From Planctomycetota bacterium (GTDB taxonomy: Bacteria; Planctomycetota; PLA2; JAEUHO01), in contig CBDCTJ010000007.1 in assembly GCA_965222115.1 (NCBI GenBank), forward strand, positions 1,760,001 to 1,824,000: 64,000 bases of DNA. Direction: 5' to 3'. This document shows positions 38,390-50,283 of this stretch, in pieces. Within the stretch, counting starts at the first letter, position 1. Every line of letters begins with the position of its first letter. The notes under the pieces were generated by a model, which ran no database searches, was not told the DNA's origin, and saw only the letters and a program-made list of their open reading frames with translations. The position numbers and the translations under genes were made by a program.

Positions 38390-39403
38390 TCAAGCGAGCG
38401 TGCCGCCGCATGACGAGCCAGATCCGGCCGTACAGCCGAAGCAGTGAGGCGCCGTGGCGATGCTACGTTTCAAAAACTCGGCGGGTTCGAAGTCACGGAT
38501 GTGGGCCACGTCGCCACGCACTCTCATGCCCAGAGCAAAGTTGAAGTCGCAATCGTGTAACGTTCCGTCCCACCCAACATGGACTTGATGGCGACACATC
38601 AGTCCGTCAACGGTTGACGGATTGAACGACGTGCGCAACAAGGTGTCGTAGGCAGCGTACCGATCTGCTTTTTGAAGATCATTCTTGAAACGGCCAATAG
38701 GCATATTGGTAATGGCAAGGAGTTGATTGAACCGAATACCAAAGCGCTCGTCGAGTTCGCGGCGATAGTCGCGTTCGAGGGCCGCCTGGTCGGGCGGTAA
38801 CGATGGGCCACCTGGGTTGTAGATCAGGTCAAGTTGAAGGTCTTGCTCTTGCGTGTCTGCGCCATAGCCGAGTGCGTTGAGACGGCGAATGGCCTCAATG
38901 CTCTCGCCATAGACGTGGCGACCGCGTTGTTTGGTGACGTTCTCTTCGAGATAGCACGGAAGCGACGCCATGACATGCAGCCCAAGCTTTGCGAAAAGCT
39001 CAGGCATGGTGTCGTACCGTGGGTGAAGAAGAATGGTGAGGTTGGAACGCACAATAACGCGCAATCCCAATGTGCGCGCCTCGGTAACAAATGCGGCAAA
39101 GTGCGGATGCATCTCCGGGGCGCCGCCCGTTACGTCGAGCGTGGACGCACCGCAACGAACCGCGGCCTTCAACACGTGGTCCATGGTCTTCTTCGTCATC
39201 TCCTCGGTTCGTGACGGGGATGATTCCACGTGGCAGTGGTGGCATGCAAGATTGCAGACCAAACCAATGTTGACCTGAACTGTATCCACCGCATGCGCAG
39301 TCAGGGGCGCACCGGTCTCGACGGCGACGCGCGTTGCGAAAGACGTCGCGGCAGCAGGCGCTCCGGCATGATGGTGGTGAGACTGTTCTTGCGGCGTGTT
39401 CAT
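38390..39403 (-). CDS. arsS: Arsenosugar biosynthesis radical SAM protein
   Basis: 'QVNIGLVCNLACHHCH', 'DVTGGAPEMHP', 'SLPCYL', 'LMCR', 'DCDFN', 'HCFGCTAGSGSSCGG'. Confidence 0.9.
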   Translation of the reverse strand: MNTPQEQSHHHHAGAPAAATSFATRVAVETGAPLTAHAVDTVQVNIGLVCNLACHHCHVESSPSRTEEMTKKTMDHVLKAAVRCGASTLDVTGGAPEMHPHFAAFVTEARTLGLRVIVRSNLTILLHPRYDTMPELFAKLGLHVMASLPCYLEENVTKQRGRHVYGESIEAIRRLNALGYGADTQEQDLQLDLIYNPGGPSLPPDQAALERDYRRELDERFGIRFNQLLAITNMPIGRFKNDLQKADRYAAYDTLLRTSFNPSTVDGLMCRHQVHVGWDGTLHDCDFNFALGMRVRGDVAHIRDFEPAEFLKRSIATAPHCFGCTAGSGSSCGGTLA

Positions 39404-39530
39404 GCAGTGGCTCTCCCTGGCCGCGAGGTTGACCGCTAGGCTACGCGGCACGTTGAGGGTCGTGGACGAGTCGTTCGCCTGGATTTCACGAGTAGTCGAT
39501 TCCACAAGTTACCGAATAAAAATTCCGATA

Positions 39531-41944: not shown

Positions 41945-42041
41945 GGTACTCGAAGCGAACTAGCCCGCATCGGCCGTGTGTCTCGACCTCAATTCGGCGA
42001 CGACGGTGAATCCCCAGGGCCGTTCCGGGTACGATGATGCG

Positions 42042-43889
42042 ATGCGCCTCAGGCTCCTCCCTCGAACCGTGCGACGCCTATCGTGGTCTGGGACACGCTG
42101 GCAAGGCCTTGCGCTCTGCGTGGCGGCGGTAGGACTTACATCGGCGATCGCCTGGGCACGTGTTGACGTCGAGGCGCGATCGGCGTCCGAGATCTACGAA
42201 CGCAAGGGCACAATTGCTGCATGCGTCACCTACGTGGCCGAGGAACTCAAGGCCCGCGTACAAAACACGGGTGGGAAGGCGCAATCCGAGCTGCTTCTGA
42301 TCGTGGACCCGGCCGCCTCCCTCTCAGACGACATTGCGGCGATGGCCGCGTCGCTACAGGAGGTGTGGCGCGTGGGCCCGCCCTCGCTACGCATAGGGGT
42401 TTACGGCGTAGGCAACGATACGTGGTCGGCTCCCACGCGCGTGCCGCCAACCGTGAAGAGCGCTCTTGAGGAAGCGCGCTTCATGAATGTGGAGGGCATC
42501 AAGAATCTCCACGCGGCCATCCGCGATGCCGTGGAGCAACTCGGGGAGCCGCGTGACGACATCATTCGCAGCCTCCTGGTGATCTCGGATCGCAGCGCGG
42601 AGTGCGAGGACAATGTTGAGGAGACGCGCGAAGCCTTGTTGGACGCGGGCGTCAGCTTCTATTGCATCGCGCCCGAGTCTGGGTTCGAGCGTACGTGGGT
42701 GCAGGCGTTCAAAGCACGCGGCGACTCGAAACAGGGCGTTACGGAGCGATTCAATCCCATGCCCAAAAAGGCTGAGGACGGCGCGCTCTTCTACGGGAGC
42801 GAGGTCGCATTTGGTCTGGTGCCCTACCGCTGGGAATTCCGATTCGCGCAGACCGACTTTGTGTGGGTACGTCCACCTGCCTATCCCGTTCCCTCCGGCT
42901 TTGGGTATTGGAGTCTGGCCACGCTTTGTCATGCCACCGGCGGACGTTATTTCATCTATGACTTTGGCATCCCCGCCGCGAGCAAGGCGCGCACCGACAA
43001 GAAAAAGAAGCGCAAGGAACTCTACAACTATGCGCGGCTGTCCCTGTTGACGCCCGACCTTCGGGCTCGTCGTCAAGTGCTCAAGTCACTCAGCAAGGAC
43101 TGGCGGGCCACATCGATCGTTCGCATTTGGGAACGCCTTGCCAACGAGTCGGTGCCTATTCTTCAAGAGCGCGGCACGTTGGAAGCGCGTGGTTCCACGC
43201 TTGTACCTCGACCTGCCCGCGCCGTAAGGGCGTCCGCGACGCCGGTCACCTGGTACACCGACATGAAGGATGTGCGGGCCGCCATGAAGCTTGCTCGCGA
43301 ACGGATCACCGCCCTAGAGAACGTGTTGAAGTCGTGGCGCACTGCCAATGCCAAAGAGCGCCCTGCCGCAAACCGAAGAGATGGCTTCTCGGAGCGACTT
43401 GAAGCTGATTTCCAGTTGCTGGGCGTGCAGTTGCGCAAGCTCCGCTTTCACTGGGGCGAAGTCATGGCGGCGCTCAAGAGCATTCGCAGTTTGGATGTGA
43501 GCTATCGCCGCGTTCGTCTACTGCCCAAGGTGCTTCTCGTGGGTGTGGGACCTCCTGCATTGAAAATTGATCTGGAGGACAAGGAGCGCAATGCCCGCTT
43601 CGCTGAGCTCTGCCTGAGTATGCAGAAAATGAGCGACCAGTTCGAAGGCACGCCGTGGTCGCTTGTGCTTAACAAAGGAAGCACGCTGTCGTTTATCAAA
43701 GACGTTCATGTGATCGAAGACGAAGCGCGAAACAAGTCATCACGCACGCGGTCCGAAAAGGACGGTTCCGGCAACGGCAAGAAGAAGAAAGATAAGAACA
43801 AGAAGAAGAAAAAGAAGAGGCCATCAGCACCTCCGCCACCAGGACCTCGTCCCGGCAGTGGGTCCGGTGGCCCCACGAGCGGCGGCTAA
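42042..43889 (+). CDS. Exported vWA-like domain protein with Lys/Pro-rich tail
   Basis: 'LLLIVDPAASL', 'LLVISD', 'SGFGYWSLATLCHATGGRYF'; poly-K tail. Confidence 0.8.
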   Translation: MRLRLLPRTVRRLSWSGTRWQGLALCVAAVGLTSAIAWARVDVEARSASEIYERKGTIAACVTYVAEELKARVQNTGGKAQSELLLIVDPAASLSDDIAAMAASLQEVWRVGPPSLRIGVYGVGNDTWSAPTRVPPTVKSALEEARFMNVEGIKNLHAAIRDAVEQLGEPRDDIIRSLLVISDRSAECEDNVEETREALLDAGVSFYCIAPESGFERTWVQAFKARGDSKQGVTERFNPMPKKAEDGALFYGSEVAFGLVPYRWEFRFAQTDFVWVRPPAYPVPSGFGYWSLATLCHATGGRYFIYDFGIPAASKARTDKKKKRKELYNYARLSLLTPDLRARRQVLKSLSKDWRATSIVRIWERLANESVPILQERGTLEARGSTLVPRPARAVRASATPVTWYTDMKDVRAAMKLARERITALENVLKSWRTANAKERPAANRRDGFSERLEADFQLLGVQLRKLRFHWGEVMAALKSIRSLDVSYRRVRLLPKVLLVGVGPPALKIDLEDKERNARFAELCLSMQKMSDQFEGTPWSLVLNKGSTLSFIKDVHVIEDEARNKSSRTRSEKDGSGNGKKKKDKNKKKKKKRPSAPPPPGPRPGSGSGGPTSGG

Positions 43890-44013
43890 CCCGATCTAGG
43901 TGTTCGTGCTTGTTTACATTCGCTGGCGTTTACATTCGCTGACAATTGAGCGGGGGCGCGTGAATCGAATCGCCGTCCCCTCCCCCATCTGAGTACTCGC
44001 CGATCCGCAAATG

Positions 44014-44047
44014 AAAAGAGCGCACACCACCTGGCGCGCGCTCTCTT
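44014..44047. terminator. Probable bidirectional intrinsic terminator
   Basis: AAAAGAGCGC...GCGCTCTCTT hairpin between convergent genes. Confidence 0.55.
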
Positions 44048-44126
44048 GCAGTCGTTGCATTACGTCCCGAGCGACCCCAGTCGCTCGACAGCAACGCGTG
44101 TGGCCGATTCGAATACCGGCTTGACG

Positions 44127-44576
44127 TTACTTGAGATCGCCTTCAACGCCGTTGGTGGCGGGCTGCGTCTCGGGCACGGCTTCCTCAGCGGGGGGCGCGC
44201 CTTCGGGCATAGGCATTTCCGTGACGGCGCCATCACCCGTGTAAGGAACGATCACGCCGGGATCGGCGTAGGGCATGGACATGCCGGGGTCCATGTAGCC
44301 GCCGCAAGGTGGGGGTGCGCAGGGCGACACCATCGGCATGGGAGCGGGTGCGCACGGTGAGACCATGGGCGCAGGTGCACATGGCGCTACGACGGGCGCA
44401 GGCTCACATGTGACGCACGGTGCAGGTGCTGGTGCCGGGGTGGGTGCAGGCGCAGGGCAGCACTTGGGTTGGCAAGGCTTGCAGGACGGACAACCAAATC
44501 CGCCTTTGCATCCGGCGAGCAGGGAAAGACCAATAACGGCAGCCCCGATCACCAGCATGGATCGAAATGTGTTCAT
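44127..44576 (-). CDS. Cys/Pro-rich lipoprotein 1 (149 aa)
   Basis: Lipobox LAG-C; 'CPSCKPCQPKCCPAPAP', 'SPCAPAPM' repeats; RBS GAGGGAG. Confidence 0.85.
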   Translation of the reverse strand: MNTFRSMLVIGAAVIGLSLLAGCKGGFGCPSCKPCQPKCCPAPAPTPAPAPAPCVTCEPAPVVAPCAPAPMVSPCAPAPMPMVSPCAPPPCGGYMDPGMSMPYADPGVIVPYTGDGAVTEMPMPEGAPPAEEAVPETQPATNGVEGDLK

Positions 44577-44772
44577 GATGATTCTCCCTCGTCAGTCGTC
44601 TGCTCGACTGGTGACTAGCGGGCGCAGGAGCCGCCACCATCTGTGGCCAACGCTCCTCTGAAATGAATGGCCCCTCGTAAAGAGGATCCCGCCCGCTGAA
44701 ATGCTAATGACACGCCCCCGGCGCGCAAGTCGGTACGCAGCAACTCATGAACTTCTCCGCTGCGGTAGGCAC

Positions 44773-44807
44773 AAAAAAACGGACGGGAGCAAGAATGCTC
44801 CCGTCCG
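44773..44807 (-). terminator. Intrinsic terminator of lipoprotein 2
   Basis: CGGACGGGAGC/GCTCCCGTCCG stem followed by T7 on the minus strand. Confidence 0.85.
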
Positions 44808-44912
44808 AGTTTGGTCAGCAGAAACGCAGAACGTAGTGGTCGCCCTCCCATGATTCGGGTAGGCGGGGTACGACGGTCTGCGGCTTTACTTTACGACTTC
44901 AAGCTGATTTGC

Positions 44913-45299
44913 TTAGCCGCAGGCCTTGCCACCAGCGCCGCACGCCATGGCGGGTGCGGGGGAGCTCATGGGGGCGCCCATTGCGGGGGCACCCATCATC
45001 GGTGCGGGTGAGGAGTAGACGGGGCCACTCGAGTACGTGGGTGCGGGCATAGCCGAACCAGCGTAGGGATCGCAGGGCGAAACAGGTGCACAGGGCGAAA
45101 CGACCGGTGCCGGTGCTGTCACGACCGGAGCGGGCGCGGGTGCGGGCGCCGGTGCGGCGGGCTTGCAGCAGGAGTCGCAAGAGTCGCAACAGCTATTGCA
45201 GCCGAAGCCGGGGAGTCCAGGAAGAAGACCACAGCCCGTCATGAAGCTGCAGCCTGCGACGATGACGGCAAAGGTCATCAATGTACGAAGCTTGGTCAT
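44913..45299 (-). CDS. Cys/Pro-rich lipoprotein 2 (128 aa)
   Basis: Lipobox MTG-C; 'CGLLPGLPGFGCNSCCDSCDSCCKP', PAPAP repeats, ends 'CGAGGKACG'. Confidence 0.85.
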   Translation of the reverse strand: MTKLRTLMTFAVIVAGCSFMTGCGLLPGLPGFGCNSCCDSCDSCCKPAAPAPAPAPAPVVTAPAPVVSPCAPVSPCDPYAGSAMPAPTYSSGPVYSSPAPMMGAPAMGAPMSSPAPAMACGAGGKACG

Positions 45300-45947
45300 T
45301 TTCTTTGCTTTCCGGCCTTCTGGTGCAACGGGCAATCAACGTGACAAACCGTGCGCGTGGCCTATTTGAAACTATCTGACTCTTTGAATGTTTGGTTTTG
45401 AACGTTTCGCGTTCCTAAACGCGGAACTTGACGACCGGTGGAAGATCGCCCCAATGACAAAGGGGCGCCATCTCGCGTCCGACACGTACCGCCCTAGCAT
45501 GGGCGCCGCTATCGACTGCCAGACTTGTTCCAACGATCACCTGGCTAGAACATTCGGCGGCGCATGGGCGATTCTGTACCGCCCTCCGGAAGTACACCCC
45601 GCACATCGCGCATACGCGGCATGGGGGGAGCTCACGGCCTCCGAACTCCTAGTCGCCCCAGATCTTAGCCGGCCCGCCCGAGCCGCAACGGAATTCTTGC
45701 CCAATTTGTGCTGTAGATCTCGAATTTGCTATGTCGGATTCCAATGCCGATTCTCTCGGAGACGCCTCACACATACTCCACACAAATCCATGACGAAATG
45801 AATCCTGCGAGATTCACAGTAACGTCGAACAAGCCCCAAAAATGAAGAACGACGGCCGAGCGCAATGGCCCAACCGTCGAACGAAAGAGAAACGCCGATT
45901 GTGGGGCGAAAGCCCCCGCACTGCGTCATCTTGTTGTTTGATTGCTT

Positions 45948-46112
45948 CTAGCAGCCGCAGGGGTTGCAGCAAGAAGTCGGAGCGGGGGCGCAGCAGGGAT
46001 CGCAGCTATTGCAGCAACCGCCACCAAGACCAGGCAACAAGCCACAGCCGCTCATCATGATTGCGCCCAACGAAAGAACGCTGAGCATTACGAAAGTACG
46101 TGCCTTACGCAT
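45948..46112 (-). CDS. Cys-rich lipopeptide 3 (54 aa, absent from the ORF track)
   Basis: MRKARTFVMLSVLSLGAIMMSG-CGLLPGLGGGCCNSCDPCCAPAPTSCCNPCGC*; RBS AAGGGAG; clear paralog of lipoprotein 2; downstream hairpin 45890-45927. Confidence 0.85.
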   Translation of the reverse strand: MRKARTFVMLSVLSLGAIMMSGCGLLPGLGGGCCNSCDPCCAPAPTSCCNPCGC

Positions 46113-46533
46113 AGTGTTTCCAATCTCCCTTGAGGACTGCTTTCAGGTGCGCACGCGTCCGGGGCACCCTTCGCGAAAACCGCCCTTCCCAATTGGGTGT
46201 TGTTTTTGATCCCAGCGAGAACTTCCCGCCGGGACGCGGAATATAGACGGCGTGTCCAAAATCGGCAACGACCGTCTGGCGTTTCCTATCGCCGAGGCTG
46301 ATGCCAGCCTTGACCGATATTCGCGCAAAGTGAGGCTCTTCCATGCCTCGCAATCCCTATGGAAGGGTTTGTTTGTACTGAATTCCGGCGACGTTAGGAG
46401 CGCGTATCGTACTCAGCCGGTTCTTGGCCCCGCAGAAAATCGGCCCGTTGTCTCTGAGGGTGCCAATGGAGAAGGCGGCGCAGAATGCCGCTAAGGCGAA
46501 TCGACTACTTACACCCGCTGCGCCCGTTTTGCT

Positions 46534-46662
46534 CTACTTGCATCCACATTTCGGTGCATCGCATGGGTCCTGGCAGAGGCAAGAACAGCCCGCTACGGTG
46601 CCGGCAAGGAATACGCAAGCGATCAGGGCAAGTGCAAACCGGCGAACGACGGTGAGTGACAT
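46534..46662 (-). CDS. Cys-rich lipopeptide 4 (42 aa, absent from the ORF track)
   Basis: MSLTVVRRFALALIACVFLAGTVAG-CSCLCQDPCDAPKCGCK*; RBS AGGAGG. Confidence 0.8.
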   Translation of the reverse strand: MSLTVVRRFALALIACVFLAGTVAGCSCLCQDPCDAPKCGCK

Positions 46663-46789
46663 GGGAACCCTCCTAGAGATTGGCGATGCAGGCCGAGTAT
46701 AGGGGGTTCGCCCTGAAGCCCGCGCTTGATTTGATTCAAATCACGTAAAGATCGTGCAGCGCTTGACGGTTTCTTGCTCGTCGAGGTGC

Positions 46790-46826
46790 AAAAAAGACGA
46801 GACACACCCCACAAGGGATGTGTCCC
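46790..46826 (-). terminator. Intrinsic terminator downstream of lipoprotein 5
   Basis: GACACACCCC/GGGATGTGTC hairpin with a T-run on the minus strand. Confidence 0.6.
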
Positions 46827-46948
46827 AAAGTGGTTGCTGCCGCGCGACTCGCACCTCAAGGGCGCTGATATGCCAAGGGCATCCGGATACGCCAAAGGCA
46901 TTAACGTCGCGCTAGCAGCCGAATTTAGCAGTTTGAGGCTGGTTTGCG

Positions 46949-47170
46949 TTACCCGCCGCAGCTACTGCCACAGCTTCCGCCACCGCAGCTCTTGCCGCTG
47001 TCGCTTCCACCGTTCCATCCGAGACCACCGCTTGCGCCACCGCAGCAGGGGCTCTCGTAGACGGCTGTGCAGCTCTTGTCACAGCAAGAGTTGCAGTTGT
47101 TGAAGAGGGAACAACCCCCCACGAAGCTGGCTGCGCCGAGCAGGGCCAGCACGAAAAATACCTTGCGCAT
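46949..47170 (-). CDS. Cys/Gly-rich lipoprotein 5 (73 aa)
   Basis: MRKVFFVLALLGAASFVGG-CSLFNNCNSCCDKSC...CGGGSCGSSCGG; RBS GGGAGG. Confidence 0.85.
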   Translation of the reverse strand: MRKVFFVLALLGAASFVGGCSLFNNCNSCCDKSCTAVYESPCCGGASGGLGWNGGSDSGKSCGGGSCGSSCGG

Positions 47171-47484
47171 TGAAAGCTTCCTCCCTGTGGGCGGAGACAG
47201 CGCTAGCGTCACCCTGCCCGGAAACGTTGAACTATTATTGCGAAGGAAATGTGAAGGGGCAAGGCCCCAGACACCCGCTTCGCGCAATCTAGATCAATTT
47301 CTAGACCTCGATTGCATCACGCCCTATCGACGCCCGGCGAGGAATCTAGAAGCTGCATTCCATTCGCGCCGAGTTTGTCATCGCTTTGTCACGCGAGCGC
47401 GATGGTCTTGCACCCCGGTCAAACTGTATGCATCTCCTGCCGTCCCGCACTATGGCGGCGCTGCGCAGCGCTTGGAGGATCCAC

Positions 47485-48780
47485 ATGAAAGTGCTTGTCA
47501 TTGGTAGTGGGGGGCGCGAGCACGCGTTGGTCGTCGCGCTATCGCGTTCACCGTCTGTGAAACGCGTGTTTTGTGCGCCCGGAAATGGCGGCATGATCGG
47601 CGACGCAACACCGGTACCTGAGATTCCAGTTCACGACGGCGAGGGCATCGTGGCGTTCGCGAAACGGGAGACAATTGATCTTGCGGTGATCGGCCCCGAA
47701 GCGCCCCTTGTTGCGGGGCTTGCGGACTTGCTGCGTGACGAGGGCATCGCGGTGTTTGGGCCTGGGCGAAGTGGCGCTCGCCTCGAGGGCAGCAAGGTGT
47801 TCGCCAAGGAATTGATGGCCAAACACGACATTCCAACGGCCTCGTACCACGCCTTTACCCAAGTGGCCGAGGCGCTCGATTATGTGCGCGGCAACAACTA
47901 CTACCCGATTGTGATCAAGGTCGATGGACTCGCGGCCGGCAAAGGCGTGGTGATTTGCGAAGACGAGCCGGCGGCAACCAAAGCGCTGCACGAACTCATG
48001 ACCGAGAAACGATTTGGTGAAGCCGGCGATCGCATTGTGATCGAGGAGTTCTTGCGCGGCGAAGAGGTGTCTGTGCACGCCATCACCGATGGATCCACGC
48101 TCTTCCTCCTGCCTTCCGCTCAGGATCACAAGCAGATTGGTGAGGGTGATACTGGACCCAACACGGGCGGCATGGGCGCCTACAGTCCAACGCCTTTGGT
48201 TGCCGGACCTGTTATGGACAAGGTCGTTTCATCGGTCTTTGTGCCGATTCTTCATGCGTTACGAATGGAGCGCGTTGAATACCGCGGCGTAATTTTTGCT
48301 GGCCTCATGATGACGCCAGGCGGTCCACGCGTACTAGAGTTCAACTGCCGGTTCGGTGATCCGGAAGCGCAGGTCATGCTTCCACGGCTCAAGAATGATT
48401 TGGGTCTTGTACTTAAGGCTGCTGCCGACGGAAAACTTGATGACAATGACGCCTTGCGACCATCCATTGACAATCAATCATGCATGGGCGTGGTCATGGC
48501 ATCGGGCGGCTATCCCAGCAACTACCGCACGGGCAAGGTCATTTCCGGCGTAGAAACAGCCGACGCCATGGATGGCGTCACGGTCTATCACGCCGGAACG
48601 CGGCTACGCGGAGACGACTTGGTGACAGCGGGTGGACGCGTGCTCTGCGTGACGGCATCGGGCGAAGATCTTGCCGAGGCCCGCGACCGCGCGTATCGCG
48701 CCGTAGACGCCATTGAGTTCGACGGTGCCTACGCCCGCCGGGACATCGGCCATCGAGCGCTGGGAACTACGGCGAGCTAA
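47485..48780 (+). CDS. purD: Phosphoribosylamine-glycine ligase
   Basis: 'MKVLVIGSGGREHA', 'GLAAGKGV', 'GPNTGGMGAY', 'EFNCRFGDPE'. Confidence 0.98.
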   Translation: MKVLVIGSGGREHALVVALSRSPSVKRVFCAPGNGGMIGDATPVPEIPVHDGEGIVAFAKRETIDLAVIGPEAPLVAGLADLLRDEGIAVFGPGRSGARLEGSKVFAKELMAKHDIPTASYHAFTQVAEALDYVRGNNYYPIVIKVDGLAAGKGVVICEDEPAATKALHELMTEKRFGEAGDRIVIEEFLRGEEVSVHAITDGSTLFLLPSAQDHKQIGEGDTGPNTGGMGAYSPTPLVAGPVMDKVVSSVFVPILHALRMERVEYRGVIFAGLMMTPGGPRVLEFNCRFGDPEAQVMLPRLKNDLGLVLKAAADGKLDDNDALRPSIDNQSCMGVVMASGGYPSNYRTGKVISGVETADAMDGVTVYHAGTRLRGDDLVTAGGRVLCVTASGEDLAEARDRAYRAVDAIEFDGAYARRDIGHRALGTTAS

Positions 48781-49704: not shown

Positions 49705-50283
49705 GTGAACCCCGATGCCCCCTCGTCCGGTACACCCAGCAAGCGCAGTGGCGGTACCGACACACGCTCGTCCACCACGAATGACTCTGAATTGAGCGCG
49801 GACGGCCAGAAGGTGATTGAACAGGCGCTGGCCGAATTTGAGGTGTTTCTACGGGCCAAACGCCTCAAGATGACTGAGCAGCGGCGCAAGATGATCTCCA
49901 CGGCGCTCTCTCAGGGTGGGCACTTCACCGCCGAAGATCTCTACCACGAACTCGCGCGCATGGAGCAGTCGGTATCGATGGCCACCGTCTATCGAGGGTT
50001 GGCGTTGCTGGAAGAGGCCAACCTGCTCGAGGGCCACGATTTCGATGACGGATTGCGACGGTACGAGCGCCTGCTGGACCGCGAGCATCACGATCACATG
50101 ATTTGCATGGATTGCCGCGCGGTGCTTGAGTTCCAGGATGACGAGATTGAGGCACTGCAACACGCCGCCGCAGAGCGTCACGGCTTCACCTTGGAAGATC
50201 ATCGCCTCGTGCTCTATGTGCGGTGTCCGGATGCGGAGCAGCCCGACGACTGCACACGTCGTGATGCCATGCGAACCGAGTAG
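49705..50283 (+). CDS. fur: Fur-family transcriptional regulator
   Basis: 'MTEQR', 'HFTAEDLY', 'ATVYR', 'HHDHMICMDC'. Confidence 0.9.
   Translation: MNPDAPSSGTPSKRSGGTDTRSSTTNDSELSADGQKVIEQALAEFEVFLRAKRLKMTEQRRKMISTALSQGGHFTAEDLYHELARMEQSVSMATVYRGLALLEEANLLEGHDFDDGLRRYERLLDREHHDHMICMDCRAVLEFQDDEIEALQHAAAERHGFTLEDHRLVLYVRCPDAEQPDDCTRRDAMRTE

Follow-up and report, generated by a model that had tools for sequence, protein, structure and literature searches.

Planctomycete envelopes that resist sodium dodecyl sulfate (SDS) have been described as containing protein rich in Pro and Cys and stabilised by disulfides (PMC3035269, citing Liesack 1986). Only the large YTV proteins have so far been linked to this chemistry; YTV domains (PF07639) mark Cys-rich proteins from planctomycete wall preparations (PMC8567305, PMC12673574). 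In chlamydiae, OmcA (CT444; PF03503, Chlam_OMP3) is a protein of 88 amino acids with 15% Cys and a proven signal peptidase II (SPII) lipoprotein, whose gene is transcribed together with omcB and which is cross-linked to both OmcB and MOMP (PMC1403754). The 'OmcA' of Protochlamydia was annotated by composition and context, not by sequence similarity (PMC1403754; PMC2811131). The subject here is an array of five genes for small Cys/Pro-rich lipoproteins, g1–g5, on the minus strand at 44127–47170 of a 64,000-nucleotide stretch of a Planctomycetota genome, the whole stretch being referred to as the window. The window corresponds to G000:C7:1760001-1824000, where G000 is the genome carrying the array: an assembly of 4.55 Mb in 7 contigs, 90% complete, and the single member of its genus among the genomes of its family. 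A search of the literature on planctomycete Cys-rich lipoproteins or lipidated metallothioneins, with most subscription journals outside its scope, returned just the chlamydial OmcA papers.

An earlier note on this DNA had proposed an OmcA-like family of envelope cross-linkers. The array proteins do resemble OmcA in size class, SPII signal and high Cys content, with precursors of 42–149 amino acids and mature parts of 9–35% Cys, and in the Cys clusters that lie directly behind the lipid anchor; OmcA is, moreover, the disulfide envelope cross-linker of a relative within the Planctomycetes–Verrucomicrobia–Chlamydiae (PVC) group. They differ in context, since OmcA has its partner gene omcB, whereas the neighbours here are purD and the gene of a 637-residue protein and the array genes are monocistronic; the multi-gene array, the Ala/Pro spacers and the conserved C-terminal motif are features of the present locus. 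The PF03503 model (cut-off 25 bits) matched none of g1–g5; in the six-frame translation of G000 it gave three noise-level matches away from the array, the best at 14.4 bits, and the cut-off was reached in none of 29 genomes of the family. A 15.5-bit match falls inside the array of the relative G013, a level also found in E. coli and other controls. As no homology is detectable, the likeness to OmcA concerns design (size, SPII signal, Cys) and not demonstrable descent; of the earlier comparison, the design stands and homology is not supported. The OmcA design was already known; the family described here is unrelated to OmcA in sequence, differs in organisation (multi-gene array, spacers, C-terminal motif) and is lineage-specific. 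If its members are cross-linkers, the lipid-anchored, Cys-rich 'rivet' design of OmcA would have arisen independently in a sister phylum.

An OmcB/DUF11 partner, also raised in the earlier note, is missing from the neighbourhood: no OmcB-like gene is adjacent to the array, and Chlam_OMP6 (PF03504) was not found in G000. Two DUF11 proteins, with 2.4–2.5% Cys, are encoded on other G000 contigs. One DUF11-repeat protein of about 800 residues (G000:C1:280959-283610) is a predicted lipoprotein with CC...CxxCxxC and then PAP directly after its lipobox; it starts like the small lipoproteins and is a possible large partner, though unlinked to them. Two other predicted lipoproteins with several Cys (G000:C1:616324-616824 and G000:C2:9645-9950) have 'RAVSYPAA.P' in common and apparently form a separate small family.

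The YTV proteins are likewise Cys-rich planctomycete envelope proteins and candidates for the Cys/Pro-rich, disulfide-stabilised envelope, but the YTV open frames found in the genome search are about 390–890 residues long and are not tiny lipoproteins. YTV gave no match on the five proteins, in G000 or in any of the 16 sampled genomes of its family. The search itself works, as it matched 25 other genomes: all 20 of another family of the phylum and 5 more. The locus represents a second, unrelated Cys-rich family, in a lineage where YTV was not found, and its composition fits the old description. The family may be a concrete molecular candidate for that old biochemical observation, and it may represent either convergence inside the PVC group or a new metallothionein class.

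The five genes and their conservation

The five consecutive open reading frames (ORFs) have the lengths and places that the earlier note had given:

g1, 44127..44576, minus strand: 149 amino acids; lipobox LAG-C; a Cys cluster precedes an Ala/Pro-rich region with PCAP/SPCAP repeats
g2, 44913..45299, minus strand: 128 amino acids; lipobox MTG-C, Cys cluster CGLLPGLPGFGCNSCCDSCDSCC, Ala/Pro-rich spacer with a Met-rich stretch, C-terminal ACGAGGKACG
g3, 45948..46112, minus strand: 54 amino acids; lipobox MSG-C; mature part of 32 residues with 10 Cys (31%) in CC, CxxC and DPC motifs
g4, 46534..46662, minus strand: 42 amino acids; lipobox VAG-C; mature part of 17 residues with 6 Cys (35%) and a C-terminal Lys
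g5 (the type A member, see below), 46949..47170, minus strand: 73 amino acids; lipobox VGG-C; mature part of 54 residues with 10 Cys

In all five, a basic N-terminus is followed by a hydrophobic core and a lipobox. With the lipoboxes as previously called, all five pass a PROSITE PS51257-type rule, which asks for a basic n-region, an uncharged h-region and a lipobox [LVI..][ASTG][GAS]-C whose Cys is at position 15–35, as do 100 distinct peptides of the gene family. The mature proteins have 5–11 Cys beyond the lipidated one, making up 9–35% of residues, and up to 26% Pro, the value found in g1, which has 12 Cys. When all six frames of the 4.55 Mb assembly were scanned, g1–g5 proved to be the most Cys-dense lipobox ORFs and the sole such cluster. 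Their intergenic spacers, counted from g5, are 286, 421, 648 and 336 nucleotides long. g5 adjoins purD and is transcribed divergently from it; its core, 'VYESPCC', is the local version of the family's invariant VYxSPCC and is followed by a Gly/Ser-rich tail ending SCGGGSCGSSCGG. The C-terminal extension of g1 is Met-rich and acidic, and similar tails, '...PCAPAPAPCAAPGY', close the last array gene of the relatives G008 and G009.

Two of the genes have alternative upstream starts, a TTG at 45335 that would extend g2 to 140 residues and a GTG at 47212 that would extend g5 to 87. g2 also has a second possible lipobox, VAG-C, six residues before MTG-C; MTG-C is favoured because g2 and its paralog g3 both go on CGLLPGL. 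The motif common to these two is real, although the earlier note wrote it with one dot too many (it reads CGLLPGL.G..CNSC), and a g3 query recovers g2 (E=1.1e-4; residues 1–46 are 54% identical). The other motif reported there, 'CNSCCD', is indeed common to g2 and g5.

The array recurs at the same place in related genomes. All 29 genomes of the family have purD, at about 56–64% identity, and the DNA upstream of it was examined in 22 relatives' loci (20, plus G013 and G022). A small Cys-rich lipobox gene is divergent from purD in 20 of these; the two loci that have no array gene hold just 314 and 782 nucleotides of contig there. In G013 the far flank is conserved as well, with the 637-residue protein, an SNase-domain protein and a peptidyl-prolyl isomerase. 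A g3 search of 41 genomes (G000 and 40 relatives) gave weak matches, several of which lie inside tandem arrays of similar small ORFs. The ratio of nonsynonymous to synonymous substitution (dN/dS, Nei-Gojobori) is below 1 in all 14 ortholog pairs, taken within or between close genera, and ranges from 0.14 to 0.76. Synteny and dN/dS rule out chance ORFs of GC-rich DNA, and it can be regarded as practically certain that the array is a real, selected lipoprotein gene family. On the grounds of synteny, purifying selection and conserved lipobox and Cys positions, g1–g5 are paralogous, separately transcribed genes for predicted small Cys/Pro-rich lipoproteins. Several members fall below the usual gene-calling cut-offs, an instance of conserved envelope genes being hidden by length limits on short ORFs.

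Peptides that are small, rich in Cys, hypervariable and duplicated in tandem might also be precursors of ribosomally synthesised and post-translationally modified peptides (RiPPs), or secreted Cys-rich peptides, in which the N-terminus serves as a leader instead of a lipoprotein signal. This is exceedingly improbable: the lipobox is conserved throughout the family, and the conserved flanks (purD, a tRNA gene in several relatives, and the 637-residue protein) hold no modifying enzyme, protease or transporter, in agreement with the earlier note, which had set a RiPP role aside. The radical SAM gene at 38390–39505 is of the DUF3641 type, lies 5 kb off the array and was not seen beside the G013 array.

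Array size varies from one gene to six: G013 has six, G000 and G008 five, and G009, G020 and G003 four. Gene and repeat number differ between genera through duplication and loss. Contigs of metagenome-assembled genomes (MAGs) frequently end 0.3–4 kb from purD on the array side, as follows:

Contig breaks near the array: L031, L032, L033, L035, L042, L043 and L050, and the purD contigs of G022, G044, G023, G016 and G007

Such breaks would be caused by repeated paralogs, which would defeat short-read assembly, and they suggest that the array sizes seen in MAGs are underestimates.

Subfamilies, composition and distribution

Two subfamilies can be distinguished. Type A is the purD-proximal gene (g5 in G000), and its alignment, A1, spans 21 sequences from as many genomes. 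Invariant positions in A1 are the lipobox Cys, another Cys and the core V-Y-x-x-P-C-C; most genomes have CEPVY[QAV]SPCCPAPS, and the A1 profile finds g5 at E=2e-20. Type B comprises the other genes (g3 and g4, with g2 and g1 as longer forms), characterised by CC, CxC and [D/N]PC motifs and, in many relatives, by hexapeptide (E/Q)PNPC(N/D) repeats; its profile, A3, finds g3 at E=2e-5 and g4 at E=9e-6. The lipobox Cys is invariant in A3 too. Further type B genes, or a second array not linked to purD, occur on other contigs of G001, G017, G003 and G005; three type B genes stand in tandem at G001:C19:48787-49986 (L024:8788-9986), and the whole G003 genome yields up to 7 profile matches.

Across 100 distinct mature peptides, Pro accounts for 19.3% of residues, Cys for 19.1%, Ala for 14.0%, Gly for 11.8% and Asn for 6.3%. 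His stands at about 0.1% (in a tally of 98 peptides) and there are few aromatics; the lipobox is followed by GW or GF in many type B members, and type A has its invariant Tyr. The residue after the lipid-bearing Cys (+2) is Ser, Cys or Asn in 84 of the 100 peptides and Asp in none. Besides the lipid-bearing Cys, 57 peptides have an odd number of Cys and 43 an even number. In both types, many members go on with an Ala/Pro-rich spacer, at times with Met, and end in CGAGGK[A/S]CG or SCGGGSCG; the former C-terminus is found in 15 of the 100 peptides. CGAGGKACG was considered as a general sorting signal and rejected, as g2 alone carries the motif in the six-frame translation of G000.

Lys stands within the last five residues of 42 of the 100 peptides and is terminal in 17; g1 and g4 end in Lys. 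This brings to mind a tether of the Braun lipoprotein (Lpp) kind, with a lipid anchor in the outer membrane, the Ala/Pro spacer crossing the periplasm as a suitably extended linker, and a Lys of the C-terminal region joined to peptidoglycan by an L,D-transpeptidase, for which G000 has one gene of the YkuD type. The array proteins are like Lpp in being very small, probably abundant lipoproteins that may tether envelope layers. They are unlike it in their Cys/Pro-rich composition and in having no coiled coil, and the match to Lpp is weak and confined to a signal peptide: the NCBIfam model NF011925 matched g1 only, at residues 5–24 (E=0.074; 13.3 bits, the cut-off being 108). The majority of members lack a Lys close to the C-terminus, a YkuD gene is too common to be specific evidence, and the extreme Cys content would be left unexplained. 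A tether of this kind is thus considered very unlikely.

AlphaFold2, run on g5 with the 21-sequence alignment, predicted the signal-peptide helix alone (mean predicted local distance difference test score 48.6, with the mature part below 50), and the mature peptides are probably unstructured. Pfam and NCBIfam searches of the five proteins at E<=10 gave no useful family match. The ESM Atlas clusters nearest to g5 are unnamed Planctomycetota lipoprotein or hypothetical clusters, with scores of 0.80–0.85 that make them leads at most.

The distribution of both types was followed in 401 Planctomycetota genomes, including 16 of the family besides G000, 6 of its sister family and 378 others. The type A profile matched all 16 family genomes and G000 (E 3e-24 to 3e-8) and none of the 6 sister-family genomes; in the other 378 it gave 8 matches, at E 1e-4 to 9e-3. 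The type B profile matched 15 of the 16 family genomes and again none of the sister family, with 5 weak matches elsewhere. Three of these 13 weak out-of-family loci (L068, L071 and L112) hold small Cys-containing lipobox ORFs of a different type: two of the 8 type A loci have unrelated-looking small Cys lipoproteins, and one of the 5 type B loci has a small Cys lipobox gene. The label 'PVC-type' in the earlier note is therefore not supported. As far as these profiles reach, both subfamilies are confined to one uncultured Planctomycetia family, and they are small, lineage-restricted and unannotated in every naming source.

Larger collections gave the same picture. In one-genome-per-species contigs of 185,579 species, EPVY[QVA]SPCC occurs 16 times; 14 occurrences were confirmed, all in MAGs labelled Planctomycetota, Planctomycetia or Planctomycetales. 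A word-seeded search of 5.8 billion protein clusters returned 28 proteins without a Pfam domain, the named ones all being 'hypothetical protein' from Planctomycetota MAGs. An exhaustive profile search of 1.84 billion representatives gave 45 matches at E<=1e-3, of which 14 were among the earlier 28. There was no PF03503 or chlamydial protein among the 28, and no PF03503 in the other 31 profile matches. For metaproteomics and heterologous expression, the family provides concrete, very short targets.

Three of the weak profile matches, P0042, P0056 and P0058 (E 7e-5 to 5e-4), are unrelated periplasmic proteins with a SoxA/TsdA-type cytochrome c domain between NPC repeats. These three and P0033, P0039, P0040 and P0045, metagenome proteins of the signal peptidase I type, have long (A/G)xNPC pentapeptide repeat tails on both sides of a SoxA/TsdA-type cytochrome c or DUF5666-like domain. 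A thiol module of broader occurrence, tied to sulfur or thiol redox enzymes, may therefore be represented by the NPC repeats.

The three cytochrome matches bear on another possible role, that of a sacrificial redox buffer, in which dithiol/disulfide cycling of CxPC would soak up envelope oxidants, or of a sulfur carrier, in which the Gly-flanked C-terminal Cys would bear sulfane sulfur. The thioredoxin motif is CGPC, which CxPC resembles, and in SoxY a C-terminal Gly-Cys-Gly arm carries sulfur. The C-termini ...SCGGGSCGG or CGAGGKACG stand behind an Ala/Pro arm, and in g1 and g2 oxidisable Met-rich stretches lie beside the Cys motifs. Nevertheless the matches of P0042, P0056 and P0058 are weak and may reflect the repeat motif only, no thioredoxin-like fold is predicted, and there are no sox genes, reductase or recycling partner near the array. 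A redox or sulfur-carrying role appears quite unlikely.

Possible roles in envelope cross-linking or metal binding

The function favoured for the array proteins is disulfide cross-linking or tethering of the envelope, OmcA-like by analogy only; it is put forward tentatively, its chances being nearly but not quite even. In this model, each product would be exported, cut at the lipobox and anchored by lipid through its first Cys. The mature peptides, of 17 to about 127 residues, would then present a membrane-proximal CC/CxC/CxxC/[D/N]PC cluster, often followed by an Ala/Pro spacer and often by a C-terminal Cys pair; this order of lipid anchor, Cys cluster, spacer and terminal Cys pair resembles a connector with two ends. 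The envelope being oxidising, the thiols would form intermolecular disulfides among themselves and with other envelope proteins, and the lipid anchors and spacers would tie the membrane to a disulfide-bonded, Cys/Pro-rich protein layer. The proteins would be a functional parallel to OmcA and to the YTV wall proteins while homologous to neither.

Several observations favour cross-linking. With about 19% Cys and 19% Pro, the family agrees in composition with what was classically described for the envelope. The non-lipid Cys counts have no even bias, which fits intermolecular links rather than a closed intramolecular fold. The lack of a predicted fold in the mature part of g5 suits cross-linking as well. 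VKOR was found in 23 and DSBA in 22 of 29 family genomes, in many of them as one open frame, a VKOR-DsbA fusion (for example L126, G008:C9:741500-744300), and a VKOR-DsbA type oxidase in most of the family is counted for cross-linking. Since YTV was not found in the family, a different Cys-rich envelope component is plausible. Of the earlier proposal, then, the separately transcribed paralogous genes stand and cross-linking is still the most plausible function.

Other observations weigh against it. Neither Pfam models nor a tblastn query with the VKOR-DsbA fusion of a relative found DsbA, DsbB, VKOR or Thioredoxin_4 in G000 itself; this may be a loss or an assembly gap, the assembly being 90% complete, and a real lack could leave the thiols reduced. 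Nor does a gene for a cross-linking partner lie near the array. Restriction to one family means that the Cys/Pro-rich walls described in cultured Planctomyces and Pirellula are not explained by the array proteins, and the complementarity of YTV and the array is a single evolutionary contrast among related genomes, most of the sampled phylum having neither. Every family genome is a MAG, and the sequencing runs that contain the stretch number 4, come from a single study and include none recorded as RNA. Finally, the shortest members, with 17–30 residues, 30–35% Cys and near-zero aromatics, look at least as metallothionein-like as structural.

This last point introduces the idea that the proteins are lipid-anchored metallothioneins, whose reduced Cys clusters and Met stretches would bind Cu(I), Zn(II) or Cd(II) at the membrane surface, buffering or storing the metal, and whose metal capacity would be tuned by tandem duplication and repeat expansion. 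Like SmtA/BmtA, MymT and the fungal Cu metallothioneins, they are small, with 20–35% Cys in CC/CxC/CxxC, few aromatics and no ligand-free fold. Cys averages 19% and reaches 31–35% in g3 and g4, His is all but absent (about 0.1%), AlphaFold2 gave no ligand-free fold, and there is no bias to even Cys numbers; in g1 and g2, Met-rich segments flank the Cys motifs. Tandem gene amplification occurs in metallothionein loci, and copy and repeat number vary between genera here. That no DsbA, DsbB or VKOR was found in G000 would also suit this explanation, as would a syntenic Fur-family gene (49705–50283) two genes off.

Known metallothioneins, however, are cytosolic and have neither signal peptide nor lipobox, and known periplasmic Cu(I) sites use Met and His, not Cys. 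The array proteins are exported lipoproteins, and most relatives have the VKOR-DsbA oxidase. The invariant Tyr of type A and the GW or GF after the lipobox of many type B members count against it too, and the Ala/Pro spacer and the C-terminal Cys pair would have no obvious role. None of the five proteins matched a Pfam metallothionein, and the array has no pump, chaperone or sensor for metals beside it; the Fur-family gene lies beyond purD and on the purD strand. Metal binding of this kind is rated as the main rival, though unlikely, and that the array proteins are the first membrane-anchored metallothioneins, storing or buffering Cu(I), Zn or Cd at the envelope, is an unlikely proposition in its own right. 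If they are metal binders, they would form a new class of metallothionein, and the shortest members, of 17–30 residues and about one-third Cys, would rank with the smallest known proteins that bind metal.

Expression signals and neighbouring genes

The earlier note had described clear ribosome binding sites in most genes, and GGAG-type Shine-Dalgarno (SD) sequences are indeed clear for g1, g3, g4 and g5, that of g4 being AGGAGG, 6 nucleotides from the ATG; that of g2 is weak. The downstream hairpin that had been assigned to each gene was found for g1, g2, g3 and g5 and is absent after g4. A terminator scan of the region gave 8 sites, against 3.7 +/- 2.0 in shuffled sequence. The hairpins and the promoter candidates are:

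44020..44039, minus strand: terminator-like hairpin after g1, 6 pairs and a T-rich tail
44780..44807, minus strand: strong terminator-like hairpin after g2, 12 pairs, 9 of them G-C, then TTTTTTT; also inverted repeat I1
45850..45879, minus strand: terminator-like hairpin after g3, 12 pairs
46798..46827, minus strand: terminator-like hairpin after g5, 13 pairs and TCTTTTTT
46240..46268, minus strand: sigma-70-like promoter candidate for g3, TTGCCG, 17 nucleotides, TATATT; a consensus match only
47234..47262, minus strand: sigma-70-like promoter candidate for g5, TTGCCC, 17 nucleotides, AATAAT; a consensus match only

Strong SD sequences and terminators fit abundant, monocistronic expression of the array genes. 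In the relatives, the equivalent place 5' of the type A gene has a promoter-like TTGGCC, 17 nucleotides, TAnnCT.

The upstream regions of type A genes were compared in an alignment (A5) of window positions 47171–47262 with L023:8590-8698, L031:372-480, L033:341-449, L035:314-422 and others. The 5' untranslated region (UTR) of the relatives' type A genes is about 80 nucleotides long and has a G+C-rich hairpin (CCCG-NCCC-loop-GGGN-CGGG) 8–14 nucleotides before the SD; in some genomes the C-rich arm of the hairpin is able to pair with the SD instead. A conserved structure of this UTR is not established: the consensus folds at -1.26 kcal/mol, double changes occur in one of 5 predicted pairs, and the z-scores of single-sequence folds range from -2.4 to +0.9. 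Rfam models applied to the locus and to 14 relatives' loci found tRNAs only, plus a sub-threshold thermometer match (26.4 bits against 60).

Pfam annotation covered 15 ORFs neighbouring the array. The immediate flanks are:

47386..48780, plus strand: purD, phosphoribosylamine-glycine ligase (Pfam GARS_N/A/C), the conserved divergent neighbour that marks the locus
41976..43889, plus strand: 637-residue protein on the opposite side of the array, with no Pfam family, 49% identical to the syntenic gene in G013

purD is a marker of the locus and has no functional link to the array. Two genes downstream of it stands the Fur-family regulator gene on the plus strand, which is syntenic in G013 with 66% identity. 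The Rfam scan found no tRNA gene at 43800–47500 of the window; at the far end of the array, a tRNA gene is present in 8 of the 13 relatives' loci scanned:

Far-end tRNA genes in relatives: L033:2462-2533, L063:2883-2954, L043:1712-1783, L052:2534-2605, L057:531-604, L060:920-991, L058:391-462 and L061:794-867

The 637-residue flanking protein has an N-terminal hydrophobic segment and a poly-Lys stretch, followed by a Pro/Gly-rich C-terminal tail.

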